This document shows, one piece after another, positions 14,939 to 64,000 of a DNA stretch of 64,000 bases (position 1 is the stretch's first letter; each line of letters starts with the position of its first letter). The stretch lies in sequence record OR192075.1, one strand, 5' to 3'. The translations under genes and the position numbers were made by a program. Below the pieces are notes generated by a model. It searched no databases and was not told the DNA's origin. It worked only from the letters and a program-made list of their open reading frames with translations. The DNA comes from Escherichia phage MIZ6.

Positions 14939-15433
14939 TTATTTTACCAGTTCTGCTAATTCTTTTTCTTTAGCTTCCAGTTCAGCCTTAAGCTGTTTAA
15001 TCTCTTGTCGCTTCTTATTAGCGGCTTCTTGCTTACTATTTCGGATAACCTGATCTAGATACAACTCCCAATCCTGAATATTTTTGATAATATAACCGTC
15101 AACATTAATTGGTCGGATATTTAGTACAGCTTCCAGTTTAGTCGCAAAAACTTTAATTGCTGGGGTGAAGTATTCATATTCGTTATCTTCAAACCAATAA
15201 CCTAGACTTGCATTATCAATACGAAGACGAAGTTCAAGATCAAGGTCTTTATCTTCGGTGTAAAGATCTTTCACCTGACCCAGCGAACTAACAACAACTT
15301 TAAAACGAATTTTATCTACACCACCAAACACATCAGTAAGTATACCAGCAATTGAGCTATTAGCGCAAGATTGGTCGCTGAATGCGTCAAGGTTTTCTTT
15401 AGTTACAGTATACCAAACATCTTGTACCCACAT
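14939..15433 (-). CDS. hypothetical protein with C-terminal coiled-coil tail (family-related)
   Basis: 164 aa; tail ..KKRQEIKQLKAELEAKEKELAELVK; own promoter and RBS. Confidence 0.55.
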   Translation of the reverse strand: MWVQDVWYTVTKENLDAFSDQSCANSSIAGILTDVFGGVDKIRFKVVVSSLGQVKDLYTEDKDLDLELRLRIDNASLGYWFEDNEYEYFTPAIKVFATKLEAVLNIRPINVDGYIIKNIQDWELYLDQVIRNSKQEAANKKRQEIKQLKAELEAKEKELAELVK

Positions 15434-15463: not shown

Positions 15464-15491
15464 ATTATAGCATACTCCCTTCGCATGTCAA
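15464..15491 (-). promoter_or_regulatory. sigma70-like early promoter with inverted repeat around -10
   Basis: -35 TTGACA 15486-15491; -10 TATAAT 15464-15469 bracketed by GGGAGTAT (15458-15465) / ATACTCCC (15472-15479). Confidence 0.6.
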
Positions 15492-16666
15492 GCACTAACT
15501 TTTTTCTTTATTGCTTTCACCTTCTGGCGAATTGCTCGAATCTCTTCGATCTCTTTTTCAGTATCTTTAACAATTTCTTTGCGATTCTGAATATCTTTAT
15601 CGAGATTATCATCAAGTTTAGGCAGCATGTCAATCAAGAACTTTTTAAGGTCTTTCAGGTTGCGAATAACAGTACCTTCACCCATTACCGCCACGCCTAC
15701 ACCATCCGGCAGATCACCAAACAGCTTAACCAGTTCAGACAGATGATCATGATCTTCTAGTGCTTCTTCTGATTCAGATGGCAGTTCAACAAAGTTATAA
15801 CGTTCATCATTGCTGATCAGGTGATACCAGCAAAGCCCAAAAGATTTAGGAGTATATTCTACACCACCAACTTCAACTGCGTCAACACTTCCGAAAGAAT
15901 CTACTTTAGTTACCTTAAATCCATGTTCCAGCGTTTTAATAATTTCAATAACATGACTGGATACGGTTTCAGTATTAAACCAATGAGGCAAATTATGTGG
16001 ATTTGGCTTGTATCGTTCGCCTACTTTAAATCTCTGACCACGCTCTTGCATACGGACATATTCAACTCGCGTGATTTCCGCGAAGTATTCAAATTCGCTA
16101 CCGTCAAACAAGCAATTCCATTGATCACAAAAACGATCCGCCTTGACGGTTTCACCTTTCGCGGTGATCATGGTAGCTGATCCGTGCAATTCTTCTTCAA
16201 CCAAAAAGCCATATTCGACAAAATCAACAAGTTTCATGGCTTCTTTGTGCTCTGGGTCATGCTCTCCCCAGAATCGCTTAAATTCTTGCAAACCTTCTGG
16301 TGTAAACGAATAACATTTACCTTTTTCAAAGTAAGTCGGCATTGCATCCTCTTTCTTGTTCATCGCTTCGTATGCCTCTTTTGAGATGCGTTTAAAGTAT
16401 TTACGCTCATCGTGCATAATCATAGTAGCCCAATAATAAACGATATCCTCAGCGGAATAAACTACATCTCCAGCTTCAATAGTAATAACATGACCGTTGT
16501 CATCTTTTTCTAATACTTTAAAGCCCTTTTCGACGATTTCAGCAACCCGAATATGACCACGGCGCGAAGCATCGGTCAGAATAATTGAATAGCGAGAAAA
16601 GTCTAGAAACTCATCTTTACCACCTTCACGGAATGCATAGTAATGACCTTCAAAGAATTTAGCCAT
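15488..16666 (-). CDS. paralogous modular protein E (three repeats of GFKV-type domain plus helical tail)
   Basis: 392 aa; repeats GFKVLEKDD..ERKYFKRI, GFLVEEEL.., GFKVTKVD..ERYNFVEL. Confidence 0.65.
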   Translation of the reverse strand: MAKFFEGHYYAFREGGKDEFLDFSRYSIILTDASRRGHIRVAEIVEKGFKVLEKDDNGHVITIEAGDVVYSAEDIVYYWATMIMHDERKYFKRISKEAYEAMNKKEDAMPTYFEKGKCYSFTPEGLQEFKRFWGEHDPEHKEAMKLVDFVEYGFLVEEELHGSATMITAKGETVKADRFCDQWNCLFDGSEFEYFAEITRVEYVRMQERGQRFKVGERYKPNPHNLPHWFNTETVSSHVIEIIKTLEHGFKVTKVDSFGSVDAVEVGGVEYTPKSFGLCWYHLISNDERYNFVELPSESEEALEDHDHLSELVKLFGDLPDGVGVAVMGEGTVIRNLKDLKKFLIDMLPKLDDNLDKDIQNRKEIVKDTEKEIEEIRAIRQKVKAIKKKVSA

Positions 16667-41244: not shown

Positions 41245-41499
41245 ATGACAGAAGACATTTTGTTAAAACTCTATGATCGTCTGGATAACGAATTAGCAAC
41301 ATTGCGGGGTGAAGTTCTCTATTTGTCTAAATGCAATACAGATCTGCTTAAGCAGATTGCAGAAAGGGATGATCAAATAAAATCCCTTTCAGGTGCATTA
41401 CGTGATCGCGACAAGGCATTAGAGATTTTACAGCGTGTTACCAATAAGGAAGAATTAAAAGACTTCTTACATGGTTATGCTCATGCCATCGATCTATAA
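41245..41499 (+). CDS. hypothetical coiled-coil protein, oppositely oriented insert between gp3 and gp2
   Basis: 84 aa; followed by bidirectional terminator. Confidence 0.5.
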   Translation: MTEDILLKLYDRLDNELATLRGEVLYLSKCNTDLLKQIAERDDQIKSLSGALRDRDKALEILQRVTNKEELKDFLHGYAHAIDL

Positions 41500-41506
41500 T
41501 AAAAAA

Positions 41507-41523
41507 GCCCGTCAATGACGGGC
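41507..41523. terminator. bidirectional terminator between convergent genes
   Basis: AAAAAAGCCCGTCAATGACGGGCTTAATCTTAT; palindromic stem flanked by A6 and T-rich tract. Confidence 0.6.
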
Positions 41524-41529
41524 TTAATC

Positions 41530-42351
41530 TTATGCATCCTTCCAAACTTTCCTTGCGTCGTATTTCTTGCCTTTTGACATAAACTGATATGTAGGCATAT
41601 AGATAATATTGCTCCAGTCTTTCGGGCTAATCTCAACAAGTTTTGTTTTAATGTGTCCCGGTAGATATGCTTTGATCATGTGGTCACTACCACGCATACC
41701 TTTTACATCGCTCCATTTGATTTTTAAGCGTGTTTTATTGCTCAAGGTAGGAGTAGATGCATATTGCTTTAAAAGTGCCTCTAAAAACTGCTGACGGGCT
41801 TTAGGCGTTACATAGTGTAAGTTAAGACCCAGCATTACAGTATTACCCGCCTTTGTCTTAGAATCACCCAGACAAATGATCAGCGGGAAAACATCCCAAT
41901 ATGGCAAAGTGTCTTTATACTTCGCATCATACATAAAGGTATAGATTCGCCCTACTTGCGGTTTTACAATCTGGTGTCCCTTTATTCCCGCTTTTATTGT
42001 TTTAGTAAACCACTCCTGTGATTTTTCTTTAGGACGACTCTTTGATACAGCACGCATAGACGCACGAAAATCATTAATCATCATCATTGCGCGTTGCTGC
42101 TTATTGAGACCCTTTGCACTTTTCCCTTTTAGTTTTTCAACTTCTATTGCTGTTTTAATTTCGCTGGCATAACGAGACATACTTTTAGTGAAAGTCGCAT
42201 AGGCTATTCCCTTAGAATCTGCAAATGCTTTAGCTGTCATTCCTTTGGCTTTTGTTTTCGCAAATTCTACACCCAATTCGACCCACTGTTTAGACTTTCT
42301 TTTTTGGGGAGACGGCTTTTCGTCTTCGGTGATTATTTCAAATACGCTCAT
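41530..42351 (-). CDS. 2: gp2 DNA end protector protein
   Basis: 273 aa (T4 gp2 ~274 aa); synteny between gp3 and gp4. Confidence 0.65.
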   Translation of the reverse strand: MSVFEIITEDEKPSPQKRKSKQWVELGVEFAKTKAKGMTAKAFADSKGIAYATFTKSMSRYASEIKTAIEVEKLKGKSAKGLNKQQRAMMMINDFRASMRAVSKSRPKEKSQEWFTKTIKAGIKGHQIVKPQVGRIYTFMYDAKYKDTLPYWDVFPLIICLGDSKTKAGNTVMLGLNLHYVTPKARQQFLEALLKQYASTPTLSNKTRLKIKWSDVKGMRGSDHMIKAYLPGHIKTKLVEISPKDWSNIIYMPTYQFMSKGKKYDARKVWKDA

Positions 42352-42362
42352 AATATTATCCT

Positions 42363-42836
42363 CTATTTGTTAAGCCCTTTAAAGCCAAACACTTTCTTTA
42401 ATGCATGTTCGGTTATGATCTTAAACTCCATGTTATGCTTTTGGCATAATTTCACGGCAGCTAACCATTTTTCAGTATTTTTTGTGTATGTCCATACTTC
42501 ATGCATATATCGTTGCTTTGTCTTCGCGGTCATTCTTTTTGGCTTTTCCGGTGGCCTTGTCTCTTTAGCTGGTTTAACTTCCCATAAATGCTCCTTGCCA
42601 TCATCAAACTTAACGTAAAAATCCATAAAGTATCTGTGTCTTTTTCCGTCGGTTGATGACTCATAAGGAATTACTACGGTCTCAGATCCCCATTTTGCAA
42701 CTCTAGGATTGCGGTCTAAAAATTTCATTATATGTAATTCCCAACTTGACCTGTAGACGATTTTTTTCAGGTCGCCTTTATACTTCTCAGGATTTTCAGG
42801 TCTATATTTACCCTTATATGTGTTGCAATTACCCAT
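42363..42836 (-). CDS. 4: gp4 head completion protein
   Basis: 157 aa; ..NPEKYKGDLKKIVYRSSWELHIMKFLDRNPRVAKWGSETVVIPY.. resembles T4 gp4. Confidence 0.85.
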   Translation of the reverse strand: MGNCNTYKGKYRPENPEKYKGDLKKIVYRSSWELHIMKFLDRNPRVAKWGSETVVIPYESSTDGKRHRYFMDFYVKFDDGKEHLWEVKPAKETRPPEKPKRMTAKTKQRYMHEVWTYTKNTEKWLAAVKLCQKHNMEFKIITEHALKKVFGFKGLNK

Positions 42837-43531
42837 TATACCACCTTCTTCTTGCAGTTGTCACCATGCCATCTAACATAATTTCCCTGATTGGCTGTTT
42901 TTCCACAATGAGGACAGGTGAAATACGGACGGGACTTTGACAATTCACTATATTTTTGTTTCATTTCTGGTGTGTTATGAATACGTTTCCATTTCTCTAC
43001 GTTTTCTTGTGACAACTTTCTACCCTTACCCGCTTTAGAGATGTTGTCTCTCCATTCTTGTGTAATTTCTCTTGACGCAATATTTCTTTTATGTTCTTCT
43101 GTAAACACTCTACCTTTTAATGAAGCAGATAATTTCTGTCGATGTTCCTCAGACAATTTAATTCCTTTTCTCTTTCCTTTAGTTGCTTCTGATATTCTGC
43201 GTCTAGTCTCTTCGGATCTTTTTCTTCCTGTATGAAATTTTCTTGAAGTCTCGACCGCAAGTTTTCTTACCCACTCAAATTGTTTATTGTTATAGTTGGT
43301 AGACCCCATCAATATTTTCGCCGCATGTACAACTCCGTGATGTGTTGGATGCATTTTTGCTAAAAGTTGATGAGCAACAAAATGTTCAGACCCCGTTAAC
43401 TCCACTATATTTTCTGGACTATCATCGCCTCCCATACAACGAGGAATAATATGATGTTTTTCTTTATATCCTTCAAGCGTTCTATGCTTTGCGCGTTCAA
43501 TTAATCGATCATAATGTTTTTGATAGTCCAT
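42836..43531 (-). CDS. free-standing HNH homing endonuclease with NUMOD-type DNA-binding repeats
   Basis: 231 aa; HHIIPRCMGGDDSPENIVELTGSEHFVAHQ HNH motif; repeated SEExRRxISxxxKGK units; C-terminal CPHCG zinc ribbon; inserted between gp4 and gp53. Confidence 0.8.
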   Translation of the reverse strand: MDYQKHYDRLIERAKHRTLEGYKEKHHIIPRCMGGDDSPENIVELTGSEHFVAHQLLAKMHPTHHGVVHAAKILMGSTNYNNKQFEWVRKLAVETSRKFHTGRKRSEETRRRISEATKGKRKGIKLSEEHRQKLSASLKGRVFTEEHKRNIASREITQEWRDNISKAGKGRKLSQENVEKWKRIHNTPEMKQKYSELSKSRPYFTCPHCGKTANQGNYVRWHGDNCKKKVV

Positions 43532-43546
43532 TTTAGCACCCTTTAT

Positions 43547-43554
43547 TATAAATA
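43547..43554 (+). promoter_or_regulatory. T4-type late promoter (TATAAATA) upstream of gp53
   Basis: TATAAATACATAATAC about 33 nt upstream of gp53 ATG. Confidence 0.6.
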
Positions 43555-43586
43555 CATAATACTATTTATCAATTGAGGGTGCTAAA

Positions 43587-44141
43587 ATGCTCTTTTCTTT
43601 CTTCCCTGCCATTGAATACAACGGCAAGATGATTACTGACATTGTGCGCAATTACCGCGCATATTTCAACGCAATAATTTCTGATTATAACATACAAACA
43701 TATTACATTCAAGGGAGTCCACGACCGGAACAAGTTGCATATGAAGTATACGGAAACCAACAACTTTATTGGATCTTGCTGATGCTTAATGACGTATACG
43801 ATCCGTTCCATGACTGGATCACCGATCAAGAGACAGCATATGAATCAGCCGAACAGCGATATGCAAATGTAGGAGGAAATCAAGTATTATACCACGTTGA
43901 TATTGACGGAAACAAGTATTGGAATCTTACCGAATATCCGAAAGGATCAAGCAATTGGTATGATAAAGGGGATATTCATCATCGTCATTTGCAGTTTCAA
44001 GGTGCACTATCGGCAGTAGACACACTGGAAGATGCGATCCTCCGTAATGAGGAACGACGCAAGATCAAGATCATAGATCCTACACAAATTAAACAATTTA
44101 TTAATGCATTCATTCGAGAAATGGAAAAGGCTGATGTGTAA
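43587..44141 (+). CDS. 53: gp53 baseplate wedge protein
   Basis: 184 aa; late promoter TATAAATA at 43547-43554; synteny before gp5. Confidence 0.75.
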   Translation: MLFSFFPAIEYNGKMITDIVRNYRAYFNAIISDYNIQTYYIQGSPRPEQVAYEVYGNQQLYWILLMLNDVYDPFHDWITDQETAYESAEQRYANVGGNQVLYHVDIDGNKYWNLTEYPKGSSNWYDKGDIHHRHLQFQGALSAVDTLEDAILRNEERRKIKIIDPTQIKQFINAFIREMEKADV

Positions 44142-44152
44142 GGTGATTAATT

Positions 44153-45952
44153 ATGCTAATGTTTAATAACTCCGTTAAATGGTTTACCGGAATTGTAGAA
44201 AACAGGGAAGACCCATTAATGCTGGGGCGTGTTCAGGTTAGGATTCATGGTATACATCCCTCGCTATCCGCACACGGTGACATTCAAGGTCTTCCAACCG
44301 AAGATCTATTATGGATTACGCCAGTACAAGATATTACAAGCGCGGCGATCTCCGGTATAGGTCAAAGCCCTACTGGTATTGTTGAAGGTTCAATGGTATT
44401 TGGTTTGGCTTTAGATGAACGTTATTTAAACTGCGTTATTCTGGGTACTATTGCCGGACAATATACAGAGAAACCACTCACTACAGAGGGTTTTTGTGAC
44501 CCTTCTGGTGCATATCCTCGTTATATTGGTAATGATGTTAATATTCTTGCTCGTGGCGGTATTAACCCAGAAACCGGACAAACAACAAAACCTGATAGTG
44601 TCTATATTCGAGATGAAAACACTGGAGTTGCAGTAAATCCAGACGACGAGCCATTAGACCAAATTCCGGTTGATGATAATCCTGATTTTACAATAGAAAA
44701 AATGCTGCGGGGCGATGAGGGATATCGCGAGAAATGGTATCTTGATTCAGAAGGATATCCGACAATAGGCATCGGGCATTTGATCATTTATAAGAAAACC
44801 AGTGATCTTGGTATTATCAATAATGAACTTTCTAAGCTGGTAGGGCGTGAAGTTACAAACGGAAGACTTACCGCCGAAGAAGTTAGTAAAGTATTTGCCG
44901 ACGATATAGAAAAGACTCGTCGTGATATGCGCAAACATCCACGAATTGCACCTGTCTATAATAAATGTAATGCCTCTCGTCGCATGGCATTAGAAAATAT
45001 GGCGTTTCAAATGGGTGTTGGTGGATTGGGTAAATTTAAGAATAGTCTTGCTGCGATGTTAGCGGAAGAATGGAAACAAGCCTATGATGGATTACGTCAA
45101 TCTGTATGGGCTAACCAAACTCCAGGACGCTCCAGCCGTGTTTCTAAAATTATTTTAACTGGTAACTTAGAATCATATGGCGTAATTGCTCCAAAGAAAG
45201 AGGAATCAATTTCTGATGATCCGCGAGCACGTTTAAGAAATGCCCGTATTGCGGCCTATAAGACGCAGAGAGCAGAAGAAGACCCAGAAGCACCGTTTAC
45301 CCCACAAGACACACGAATCATGTTTAAAGAGCCTAAGAGTTCGTATTCTGCAAGGTATCCATATAACCATGTGTACGAGTCAGAGAGCGGTCATATTATC
45401 GAGATTGATGATACTCCTTCTCATGAGCGATATCATCGTAAACATCCTTCTGGTACATTTGAAGAAACCAGACCGGACGGAACGAGGGTAGAAAAGATTG
45501 AAGGCGATGATTATCTGATCGTTAAACAAGGCCGGAAAGTAAACGTCAAGGGTAATTTGCAAGTTGTTGTTGAAGGTGACGCGCAAGTTTATTATATGGG
45601 TAATGTGATGCAAACCGTTGATGGTAACGTCACTGAATTTATTCGTGGCAATGTTAATCAGACCGTTGAAGGTACTGCTAACATGCATGTTGTTGGTGAT
45701 GTTATCGCACAGCTTGACGCTAATTTGACGGCTAACGTCAAGGGTAATGCTGAATTAATGATCGAGGGTAACACTACCGAAACAATTAAAGGTAACTATG
45801 ATTTAACCGTTGAGGGTAATTTTAATATGACAGTCAATGGCACTAAATCAGATCAGGTTAATGGTGACTGGTCCCGTAATTGTGGTGCAAGCGTTAAAGA
45901 TATTGCATCTGGTACAGTTAAAATTGATGGTAGCCGTATTGATCTTGGGTGA
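44153..45952 (+). CDS. 5: gp5 baseplate hub / tail-associated lysozyme with C-terminal beta-helix
   Basis: 599 aa; lysozyme motif DSEGYPTIGIGHLI; C-terminal VxGxxxxx repeats. Confidence 0.9.
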   Translation: MLMFNNSVKWFTGIVENREDPLMLGRVQVRIHGIHPSLSAHGDIQGLPTEDLLWITPVQDITSAAISGIGQSPTGIVEGSMVFGLALDERYLNCVILGTIAGQYTEKPLTTEGFCDPSGAYPRYIGNDVNILARGGINPETGQTTKPDSVYIRDENTGVAVNPDDEPLDQIPVDDNPDFTIEKMLRGDEGYREKWYLDSEGYPTIGIGHLIIYKKTSDLGIINNELSKLVGREVTNGRLTAEEVSKVFADDIEKTRRDMRKHPRIAPVYNKCNASRRMALENMAFQMGVGGLGKFKNSLAAMLAEEWKQAYDGLRQSVWANQTPGRSSRVSKIILTGNLESYGVIAPKKEESISDDPRARLRNARIAAYKTQRAEEDPEAPFTPQDTRIMFKEPKSSYSARYPYNHVYESESGHIIEIDDTPSHERYHRKHPSGTFEETRPDGTRVEKIEGDDYLIVKQGRKVNVKGNLQVVVEGDAQVYYMGNVMQTVDGNVTEFIRGNVNQTVEGTANMHVVGDVIAQLDANLTANVKGNAELMIEGNTTETIKGNYDLTVEGNFNMTVNGTKSDQVNGDWSRNCGASVKDIASGTVKIDGSRIDLG

Positions 45953-63506: not shown

Positions 63507-64000
63507 ATGTCAGATCTAGGCTTAGATATGAAGCAATTAATGAATTTCGAAAGTCTAGGTCTTCCGGGGTCATTCGACGCGGAAGAAGATCGAGTGAGCT
63601 ATGATCCGCTCGTCTTGACTCCGGTCGAAAGTCATCCAGAAGATCGTAATATTGACTTACAACGAGATTATAATGAGGCACGTCAGAATATTCATTTTCA
63701 GAATCAGATGATGATGGACGCCGCAAAGATTTATCTTGAACTTGCAAAAAATAGTGAGTCTCCGAGGTTCCTACAAGCATTTAACGGCCTCATGCAGCAA
63801 ATGAGCAACAACAATAAAGAATTGCTGAACATCCATAAGGATATGAAGAAAATCACCGAGCAAGCTGGAGAGAAAAAGAAAGATAATACCCCAGCCGCAC
63901 CAGTTAATATCCAGAATGCGACCGTCTTTATGGGTTCTCCTAGTGATTTAATGGATGAAATCGAAGACGAGGAAGCGCGAGTTATTGAAGGTGAGACAGT
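63507..64000 (+). CDS. 16: gp16 terminase small subunit, N-terminal part (runs off window end)
   Basis: ATG 63507 with AGAGGT RBS; ..NIHFQNQMMMDAAKIYLELAKNSESPRF..LNIHKDMKKITEQ.. resembles T4 gp16. Confidence 0.85.
   Translation, partial: MSDLGLDMKQLMNFESLGLPGSFDAEEDRVSYDPLVLTPVESHPEDRNIDLQRDYNEARQNIHFQNQMMMDAAKIYLELAKNSESPRFLQAFNGLMQQMSNNNKELLNIHKDMKKITEQAGEKKKDNTPAAPVNIQNATVFMGSPSDLMDEIEDEEARVIEGET

Follow-up and report, generated by a model that had tools for sequence, protein, structure and literature searches.

Introduction

The known systems closest to the locus described here are the free-standing homing endonuclease genes (HEGs) of T4-type phages. MobE of phage T4 is a free-standing HNH-family HEG that was shown to promote homing (PMC2790892). 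Free-standing HEGs often displace the expression signals of their hosts and embed signals for the genes downstream, and hairpins that sequester a ribosome-binding site and contain a late promoter have been documented for T4 HEGs and for late genes (PMC2988022). Another kind of mobile regulatory cassette, the PeSL of RB49 and phi1, combines a strong early sigma-70-like promoter with a stem-loop terminator. PeSLs end in a Shine-Dalgarno sequence and a start codon, and between RB49 and phi1 they act as agents of insertion and replacement; their stems are typically polyG/polyC terminators placed after an upstream stop codon, in hyperplastic regions (PMC2839356). A search of the literature returned nothing on phages MIZ2 and MIZ3, or on an HEG at gene 4.

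We analysed a window of 64,000 nucleotides, the whole stretch of DNA under study, which belongs to a Krischvirus (an RB49-like T4-type phage) and is identical to MIZ2/MIZ3. An original prediction had placed a free-standing HNH/NUMOD endonuclease at its gene 4/gene 53 junction, together with an inverted repeat attributed to the gene 53 leader. The preferred explanation, which we consider likely, is that the HEG sits on the start signals of gene 4, that the repeat is ancestral, and that homing would proceed through a cut in gene 4.

Results

A Mob-type endonuclease gene at the gene 4/gene 53 junction

The genes and protein motifs of the locus are the following.

42363–42836, minus strand: gene 4 (gp4), head completion/closure protein, 157 aa, intact
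42836–43531, minus strand: free-standing Mob-type HNH homing endonuclease ORF, 231 aa, with its TAA stop at 42836–42838
42854–42916, minus strand: C-terminal zinc-finger-like motif CxxC...HxxxC (C206, C209, H222, C226), residues invariant in 5/5 orthologues
43172–43228, minus strand: best NUMOD3 DNA-binding repeat, residues 102–120 (Pfam PF07460, E=6.7e-7)
43370–43456, minus strand: putative HNH (beta-beta-alpha-metal) catalytic motif, residues 26–54, HHIIPRCMGGDDSPENIVELTGSEHFVAH, with the pattern HH...N...H..xH
43587–44141, plus strand: gene 53 (gp53), baseplate wedge subunit, 184 aa (Pfam Phage_gp53, E=1e-58)

The N-terminus of gp4 is a TnsA-like domain. In tblastn searches, the HNH ORF product was 39–41% identical to T4-type MobE (phages T4 and LZ7) over 99% of its length, and about 35% identical to MobD; it also matched PHROG 655, 'homing endonuclease', with E=2e-64. 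Residues H26, H27, N41, H50 and H54 of the catalytic motif were unchanged in all five orthologues. Two stretches of the protein matched NUMOD3, with a score of 29.6 bits for a curated cutoff of 20.4, and additional NUMOD3 repeats extend to about residue 160. Matches to the Pfam families HNH, HNH_4 and HNH_5 were all sub-threshold (E 0.012–0.067). HNH domains of PDB chains matched a five-sequence profile of the protein weakly (E 0.045–0.25), and neither the single protein nor the profile gave a significant sequence match to a relative of solved structure. No paralogue of the gene was found elsewhere in the 64-kb window. The predicted HNH/NUMOD endonuclease at this junction is borne out by the ORF itself, the NUMOD3 repeats, the PHROG 655 match and the homology with MobE. 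Judged from its sequence, the gene is an ordinary Mob-type free-standing HEG, and not a new type of system. We infer that it cleaves and homes, most likely with gene 4 as its target.

The endonuclease gene is patchily distributed

In agreement with the insertion first proposed, the gene is not universal among relatives: it was present in 5/59 related Krischvirus records and absent from the other 54. All five carriers have an intact protein, 98.7–100% identical between them. In the neighbouring 19.8 kb, MIZ2 comes closest to phages that lack the HNH gene (99.8–99.2% identity), with the other HNH-positive phages at 99.1–97.6%, so that presence of the HEG does not track relatedness. Divergence of the HEG among the five genomes is about 1%, the same as that of the flanks, which would be compatible with one old acquisition followed by flank recombination, or with repeated homing.

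Orthologues (52–61% identity) lie directly upstream of gene 4 in Tegunavirus, Gaprivervirus, Tulanevirus and Jiaodavirus, and distribution is again sporadic within Gaprivervirus and Jiaodavirus. In every orthologous locus the HNH stop codon either overlaps the ATG of gp4 or is directly adjacent to it. In Aeromonas phage 25, gene 5.1 takes the place of gp53 as the upstream neighbour. Linkage to gp4 is confined to the subclade of this HEG. In IMG/VR, no exact match was found to the HNH-positive junction or to the gp4 tract linked to it (see below), and five HNH-less junctions were found; a gp53-based search of the same collection for the locus yielded no more than four loci.

The endonuclease gene starts on the ATG of gene 4

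Compared to HNH-less genomes, the insertion measures 695 bp (alignment gap 42833–43527) and is flanked by a short direct repeat, ATGG(G). The start of the HNH ORF coincides exactly with the position of the gene 4 ATG. As read from the sequence, gp4 now begins at an overlapping stop/start, TAATG (42834–42838), and is preceded by a further signal, also read from the sequence.

42841–42847, minus strand: Shine-Dalgarno-like AAGGTGG for gp4, inside the last HNH codons

Four orthologous loci have an equivalent AAGG, derived from conserved Cys-Lys codons and placed 9–12 nt ahead of the ATG of gp4. At the 3' end of the HNH gene, a sigma-70-like sequence (42864–42835) was considered as a new promoter for gp4 and discarded, as its -10 element shares bases with the gp4 ATG.

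Since the HNH ORF begins exactly on the gene 4 ATG, the HNH gene uses the Shine-Dalgarno sequence and start codon of gene 4, together with its predicted promoter. The original prediction that the endonuclease had taken the translation signals of a neighbour holds in that the signals are borrowed; their source, as seen in HNH-less junctions, is the displaced gene 4 and not gp53. The HEG would be a bare 695-bp ORF with neither a promoter nor a ribosome-binding site of its own. Lying on the gp4 ATG without such signals, it would be transcribed and translated from the former gp4 leader, probably late in infection, and gp4 would be re-expressed through the overlapping TAATG, with a Shine-Dalgarno sequence supplied by the final HEG codons. 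The exact-ATG junction of Krischvirus may not be the original insertion, and could result from a later crossover in the shared leader, because the orthologous HEG of Gaprivervirus and Jiaodavirus has brought its own upstream leader and is not placed exactly on the ATG of gp4.

The inverted repeat predates the insertion

The elements between the two start codons are listed below.

43529–43542, no strand assigned: left arm of the inverted repeat, CATTTTAGCACCCT; on the minus strand, Shine-Dalgarno, spacer and ATG of the HNH gene
43545–43572, minus strand: sigma-70-like TTGATA-16-TATAAT overlapping the junction, an 11/12 consensus match only
43547–43554, plus strand: TATAAATA, T4-type late promoter for gp53, predicted transcription start about 43560
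43563–43570, minus strand: GATAAATA, 7/8 late-promoter match facing HNH/gp4, predicted transcription start about 43557
43576–43589, no strand assigned: right arm of the inverted repeat, AGGGTGCTAAAATG; Shine-Dalgarno, spacer and ATG of gp53

The predicted 14-bp inverted repeat, including both start codons and bracketing TATAAATA, was found in the sequence as described, except that the 15-mer of its left arm ends at 43543, not at 43546. The repeat is perfect over 14 bp, and reaches 19 nt at 89% when extended. It is the sole perfect inverted repeat of at least 14 nt with a spacer of at most 60 nt in the window (none in 30 shuffles), and its 14-mer is absent elsewhere in the window with 2 mismatches allowed; shuffles and uniqueness together rule out a chance origin. 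Initiation regions identical over 14 nt were found between different genes in 4 of the 2145 gene pairs of the genome, and the other three pairs all derive from one stereotyped motif, AGGATTATATTATG. The exceptionality of the repeat is tempered by these stereotyped initiation regions elsewhere in the genome.

The decisive comparison is with HNH-less relatives. RB49, Phi1, W115 and G2494, read base by base, have an identical spacer (55 nt between gp4 and gp53) and the same 14-bp repeat, whose left arm there supplies gp4 with its leader and ATG. All 53 HNH-less records compared show homology to the window from 43528 on, directly beside the ATG, at 97.7–100% identity. As the same repeat is present in HNH-less junctions, where it serves gp4, it is older than the endonuclease. 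This comparison, which had been proposed as a check, runs against the idea that the endonuclease duplicated or captured the gp53 initiation region: to judge from these junctions, the repeat is ancestral and not copied from gp53. The gp4 and gp53 initiation regions of Krischvirus would simply happen to match over 14 nt, producing an inverted repeat with or without the HEG.

T4-type late promoters occupy positions -13 to -6, of which -13 is only weakly conserved among late promoters of the RB49 type (PMC1524935). TATAAATA corresponds to a late promoter predicted in RB49 at 64518–64560(+) (PMC1524935 supplement). The RB49 predictions of Nolan et al. include no promoter at the position of GATAAATA, and no early promoter at the junction (PMC1524935). 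At the equivalent place, other genera have TATAAATA or AATAAATA. A junction with facing promoters is common to T4, Serratia 4S, ECML-359, KP179 and two IMG/VR phages. All T4-type junctions examined share a compact quasi-palindrome, in which each of the facing late promoters adjoins the Shine-Dalgarno sequence of the opposite gene.

A diverged gp4 segment travels with the endonuclease gene

Next to the insertion, the beginning of gene 4 differs from that of HNH-less relatives.

42719–42831, minus strand: HEG-linked diverged tract, gp4 codons 1–39; 43/113 nt and 11 aa differ from RB49

The tract is sharply bounded and one-sided, with 5 differences over 42000–42718, and none over 43528–43714 on the gp53 side. 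It was found only in the five HNH-positive records, the next best match being 78% identical; at this level, no donor of the tract was present in the phage collection. In mixed infection, the nuclease would cut genomes without the HEG somewhere in the first 120 nt or so of gp4, and repair would copy the HEG together with the diverged, presumably uncuttable, 5' segment of gp4 (42719–42831).

The HEG-positive TG1, KP182 and IMG/VR contig L026 have a split gp4: a 1-nt frameshift about 90 nt into the gene interrupts it where the HEG-linked tract ends. We tentatively raise the possibility, which we consider less probable than not, that the gene represents a so far uncharacterised Mob lineage targeting gene 4 in at least five Straboviridae genera. 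The recognition/cleavage site would lie about 90–120 nt into gp4, at codons 30–40 (W-E-x-x-x-M-x-W-L-D). Krischvirus carriers would escape self-cleavage by a recoded site, and Tegunavirus, Jiaodavirus and L026 by the 1-nt frameshift, with the essential gp4 made as two polypeptides. The pre-existing palindrome may, in addition, act as a two-way hairpin gate, making the nuclease late-only without sequence of its own.

Discussion

Several other explanations of the locus have to be weighed. One is that the endonuclease, upon or after inserting, picked up the gp53 leader and start in inverted form, which would make the repeat a product of the HEG. The 14-nt identity of the HNH and gp53 leaders is what one would expect from such a copy, but the HNH-less junctions refute it: RB49, Phi1, W115 and G2494 have the same repeat and spacer in the service of gp4, all 53 HNH-less records are homologous from the same nucleotide onward, and HNH-less junctions of other genera (ECML-359, KP179) also have symmetric gp4/gp53 leaders. 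We give this explanation next to no credence. Hardly better, and in our opinion very improbable, is a junction made of a PeSL-type cassette, into which the HNH gene was shuffled by recombination between PeSLs rather than homed. The TTGATA-16-TATAAT match is found on the minus strand, inside the stem-loop, and stereotyped initiation regions occur elsewhere in the window, but the stem is AT-rich, covers two start codons and belongs to a conserved virion module, at variance with the PeSL definition of PMC2839356, and on this account membership was rejected. Moreover, there is no second cassette beside the HNH gene, whose 3' end directly adjoins gp4, no early promoter is predicted here in RB49, and the same HEG lineage holds the slot in genera whose junctions differ widely in sequence. 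The HNH ORF might also be a remnant, decaying or domesticated, that has ceased to home, its patchiness being due to ancestral presence and later loss, or to ordinary recombination. Decay does happen in this HEG lineage, as L026 has a decayed copy (fragments of 133 and 71 aa) in the same slot; the HNH-positive junction and its linked tract gave no exact match in IMG/VR, where five HNH-less junctions were found, and the HEG has diverged among the five carriers just as much as its flanks. Against this, the ORF is intact and its product nearly identical in all five, the catalytic and zinc-binding residues do not vary from one genus to another, and the foreign gp4 tract, together with the mismatch between HEG presence and flank relatedness, are signatures expected of homing. 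A remnant is, in our judgement, unlikely.

The last explanation concerns the function of the repeat, which could form a two-way RNA hairpin; on early or antisense read-through transcripts across the junction, it would hide the Shine-Dalgarno sequence and AUG belonging to gp53 or to gp4/HNH. Late transcripts would start in the loop; because the late promoter is inside the hairpin, they would lack the 5' arm and be translatable, as is known for T4 e, soc and I-TevI, and the HEG would inherit late-only expression. Predicted folding energies of -28.4 and -27.9 kcal/mol (z-scores -7.8 and -7.3), with both Shine-Dalgarno sequences and AUGs in the stem, speak for such a hairpin, as does the position of TATAAATA and GATAAATA, both in the loop, with predicted starts 6 nt downstream that exclude the opposite arm. 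Shine-Dalgarno sequences were paired in 9/9 junctions folded, and a sigma-70-like site in gp53, on the minus strand (43712–43684, a consensus match only), could supply read-through RNA. However, pairing of the Shine-Dalgarno sequences is an automatic by-product of close divergent genes, hairpin strength varies among the nine junctions (z from -1.8 to -9.2, with L013 and L014 at -1.8), and the right arm of ECD7 has an uncompensated C-to-A change. The divergent arrangement is a further difficulty: upstream of each gene there is only the antisense of the other, and no co-directional genes from which early or middle read-through would come. Rfam returned only sub-threshold matches to generic hairpins at the junction, and no known RNA family. 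We regard hairpin gating as rather doubtful, while ranking it above a remnant. It is compatible with the best explanation, an HEG placed on the gp4 signals.

With the preferred explanation, in which the HEG occupies the gp4 start signals and homes through gene 4, the locus offers a clean natural case of an HEG cut down to a bare ORF. The element lives on the promoter, ribosome-binding site and start codon of its host gene, and returns a replacement ribosome-binding site from its own last codons. Gene 4 being needed for head completion, and its replacement ribosome-binding site being inside the HEG, the element is hard to lose. The sharply bounded tract leads to a specific prediction of the cut site in gene 4, the same place as the gp4 frameshift in other genera, and this prediction should be useful for marker exclusion studies in phage crosses. 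The inverted repeat is to be read as the native promoter and initiation architecture of the gene 4/gene 53 junction, and not as the footprint of a mobile element.

How does this locus compare with known systems? The T4 gene 4/gene 53 junction has the same compact design, CAT-N-CTCC-T-TATAAATA-N7-TATTTATA-N-GGAGG-N-ATG, but with Shine-Dalgarno-to-ATG spacers that differ and a less stable hairpin (-16.6 kcal/mol, z = -3.4). What sets Krischvirus apart is the identity of its two initiation regions over 14 nt, and GATAAATA as the putative promoter on the gp4 side. A predicted stable hairpin on the Shine-Dalgarno and AUG, with an internal late promoter, is shared with T4 I-TevI, segB, e and soc, and with Aeh1 mobE. 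Unlike in these cases, two divergent genes here contribute their initiation regions to the predicted hairpin, which is older than the HEG, and no co-directional early or middle transcription unit lies upstream. The split gp4 of the HEG-positive TG1, KP182 and L026 recalls Aeh1 mobE, which splits nrdA; gp4 is intact in the window, though, and elsewhere its split is a 1-nt frameshift and not an HEG inserted into the gene.

With T4 MobE and the other Mob proteins, the endonuclease shares a putative N-terminal HNH motif, the NUMOD3 repeats and the C-terminal zinc-finger-like motif. Like the T4 Mob genes, its gene is free-standing between conserved genes, sporadic among close relatives, and accompanied by flanking DNA. 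It differs from mobE, located between nrdA and nrdB, by its position directly upstream of a head gene, and from the T4 Mob genes in that, in Krischvirus, it has no leader of its own and starts on the ATG of the host gene. Intronless homing is represented in T-even phages by SegG/gene 32 and SegF/gene 56; there, the enzymes are GIY-YIG or hybrid proteins, their cut sites have been mapped, and marker exclusion has been measured. Compared to them, only a Shine-Dalgarno sequence, and no promoter, is embedded here, and the tract is short (113 nt), one-sided and sharply bounded. The logic would nevertheless be the same as for SegG and SegF: the target is presumed to be part of an essential neighbour, a diverged and presumably resistant allele of this neighbour goes with the HEG, and signals of the downstream essential gene lie within the HEG coding sequence, which favours its retention (PMC2988022).

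The repeat belongs to the native gp4/gp53 junction

The genes of the region are the following.

41530-42351, minus strand: gp2
42363-42836, minus strand: gp4, 157 aa, with a TnsA-like N-terminal domain (Pfam)
42836-43531, minus strand: HNH ORF, 231 aa
43587-44141, plus strand: gp53 (Pfam Phage_gp53, E=1e-58)
44153-45952, plus strand: gp5

Perfect complementarity over 14 nt was found between CATTTTAGCACCCT (left arm, 43529-43542) and AGGGTGCTAAAATG (right arm, 43576-43589), extending to 19 nt at 89%, with a start codon at the end of each arm and TATAAATA lying between them at 43547-43554. This confirms the 14-bp inverted repeat of the original prediction, whose coordinates were right save one, the left-arm 15-mer ending at 43543 and not at 43546. 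No other perfect inverted repeat of at least 14 nt with a spacer of at most 60 nt is present in the 64-kb window, none was obtained in 30 shuffles, and the repeat 14-mer does not occur elsewhere in the window, even at up to 2 mismatches. This rarity is tempered, because the genome has stereotyped initiation regions. One such 14-nt region, AGGATTATATTATG, is exactly common to three other genes (14939-15433, 15488-16666 and 34704-35024, all on the minus strand), and is found with 1-2 base changes at several more, including gp2; a relation to the PeSL cassettes known from RB49 and phi1 is possible.

Escherichia phages MIZ2 and MIZ3 (Krischvirus, RB49-like) match the region at 100% identity, and window position 64000 is the exact end of their GenBank records, the window being approximately their last 64 kb. 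The HNH gene was found in 5 of 59 matching records (MIZ2, MIZ3, PTE-Eco09, ELT4 and Brandy), the matched region being about 695 bp shorter in the remaining 54. In RB49, Phi1, W115 and G2494, which lack the gene, 55 nt separate the ATG of gp4 from that of gp53; the distance from the HNH ATG to the gp53 ATG in the window is also 55 nt, and this spacer is identical to the other four, both arms included. Homology starts at 43528, beside the ATG, in all 53 HNH-less records matching the junction (97.7-100% identity). The left arm is therefore the native leader and start codon of gene 4. The repeat is native junction architecture and older than the endonuclease. The original prediction is thus borne out only in part: the HNH gene does use borrowed translation signals, but those of gp4, and a duplication of the gp53 initiation region is not supported, the same repeat being present in the four HNH-less phages.

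The endonuclease gene occupies the start of gene 4

The HNH ORF is a polymorphic insertion of 695 bp, seen as an alignment gap at 42833-43527 with ATGG(G) at its bounds. It begins on the ATG of gp4, without a leader of its own, and uses the gp4 leader. Read from the sequence, its stop overlaps the gp4 start in TAATG, with AAGGTGG a short way 5′ of it; gp4 now starts within this stop/start overlap, behind a Shine-Dalgarno embedded in the HNH ORF. Four other genera have orthologues (52-61% identity), each immediately 5′ of gene 4.

Tegunavirus: Yersinia phages TG1 and phiR1-RT
Gaprivervirus: E. coli phage UPEC07
Tulanevirus: Aeromonas phage 25 (upstream neighbour gene 5.1, same strand)
Jiaodavirus: Klebsiella phage KP182

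At each of these loci the HNH stop overlaps or abuts the gp4 ATG, and an AAGG from conserved Cys-Lys codons is found 9-12 nt upstream of that ATG. In Gaprivervirus and Jiaodavirus, where the gene is also sporadic, it has its own leader and does not sit exactly on the gp4 ATG, unlike in Krischvirus. Among 80 IMG/VR relatives, gp4 follows the HNH gene in this subclade only. We conclude that the slot of the endonuclease gene is gene 4, not gp53.

A decayed copy was seen in the same slot of a 170-kb IMG/VR phage contig (L026, 1489-2042), reduced to fragments of 133 and 71 aa with the NUMOD region deleted. Neighbouring slots also hold endonuclease genes: between gp4 and gp2 in phage RZ (L017 1032-1760), between gp2 and gp3 in Serratia phage 4S (L010 1501-2160; N-terminal 90 aa 53% identical to this HNH), and after gp2 in UPEC07 (L007 3441-3675). 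In Straboviridae, the gp53-4-2-3 cluster appears to be a homing endonuclease hot spot.

A foreign gp4 tract is linked to the gene

Differences between the window and RB49, Phi1 and W115 were counted around the HNH gene. There are 5-8 in 42000-42718 and none in 43528-43714, against 43, with 11 amino-acid changes, in 42719-42831 (gp4 codons 1-39). This foreign 5′ tract goes strictly with the endonuclease gene: it is limited to the five records that carry it, the next best match in the phage collection being 78%. The phages closest to MIZ2 over the neighbouring 19.8 kb are HNH-less (Delraymugoa and Aragogtheria 99.8%, kaaroe 99.4%, W115 99.3%) and the remaining phages with the gene are more distant (99.1-97.6%); presence of the gene therefore does not track relatedness. 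Both features are of the kind that homing would leave.

Three lineages bearing the endonuclease gene have a 1-nt frameshift in the essential gene 4, which divides it directly after W-E-x-F, near codon 33.

TG1 (L006): ~2270-2285
KP182 (L009) and relatives: ~2270-2285
IMG/VR contig (L026): 2108-2135

Compared with HNH-less KP179, KP182 has its extra base exactly at the end of the diverged tract, and Jiaodavirus records with gene names show two gp4 CDSs when the HNH gene is present and one when it is not. The window gp4 is intact, without frameshift. Because the frameshift coincides with the densest divergence of the window tract (codons 33-39), the comparison points to a putative target site around gp4 codons 30-40.

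Promoters and predicted hairpin of the junction

The T4 junction reads CAT-TGGATT-CTCC-T-TATAAATA-GATAATA-TATTTATA-AAC-AGGAGGG-CCC-ATG. In this design, which accounts for the palindromic character of the junction, a pair of late promoters face one another and each adjoins the Shine-Dalgarno of the opposite gene. The same design is found in Serratia 4S, ECML-359, KP179, TG1 and two IMG/VR phages; the gp4-side motif in Krischvirus is GATAAATA (43570-43563). The window has fewer copies of the late promoter core ATAAATA than expected (14 against 23.5), and two of the 14 are in the junction spacer. Exact TATAAATA has only 4 copies in the 64 kb, those near genes lying 20-35 nt upstream of ORF starts. 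For RB49, a plus-strand late promoter was predicted at 64518-64560 (window 43521-43563), with neither a minus-strand late promoter nor an early promoter at the junction, and in phages of the RB49 type late promoters show poor conservation at position -13 (PMC1524935). Two minus-strand sigma-70-like matches (11/12) were also noted, one in the spacer (43545-43572, TTGATA-16-TATAAT) and one inside the HNH 3′ end (42835-42864), its -10 element overlapping the gp4 ATG. Elsewhere in the window, between the convergent ORF 41245-41499 (plus strand) and gp2, a perfect 10-bp inverted repeat with a 1-nt spacer (AAGCCCGTCA / TGACGGGCTT, 41505-41525) is probably a bidirectional terminator.

If transcribed through, all nine junctions tested are predicted to fold as a hairpin (-10 to -28 kcal/mol, z = -1.8 to -9.2), Krischvirus being the extreme case. 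With starts placed 6 nt downstream of each motif, either predicted late mRNA would lack the opposite arm, which is the geometry of known T4 hairpin-gated late genes and homing endonuclease genes (PMC2988022). Unlike in those systems, however, co-directional upstream genes are absent here, and in ECD7 the gp53 arm carries a C-to-A change (AGGGTGATAAAATG, L011 ~1590-1603) without compensating change in the gp4 arm. Both points argue against hairpin gating, which we regard as a possible but rather unlikely add-on.

Proposed mechanism and relation to known endonucleases

We propose that transcription from the spacer, probably at a late stage of infection, covers both the endonuclease gene and gp4. 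Genomes lacking the HNH gene would be cut by the nuclease in roughly the first 120 nt of gp4, and repair would copy the endonuclease gene together with the diverged tract, which would protect against self-cleavage.

The 231-aa protein has a NUMOD3 motif (Pfam, E=6.7e-7) as well as a match to PHROG 655 ‘homing endonuclease’ (E=2e-64); Pfam HNH models match below threshold and solved HNH domains weakly. Key residues of its HNH motif, HHIIPRCMGGDDSPENIVELTGSEHFVAH, and of a CxxC...HxxxC motif C-terminal to it are invariant in five orthologues. What occupies the junction is an ordinary free-standing homing endonuclease of the Mob type; it is already annotated, belongs to an uncharacterised lineage associated with gene 4, and shares 39-41% identity with MobE of T4-type phages across its whole length.
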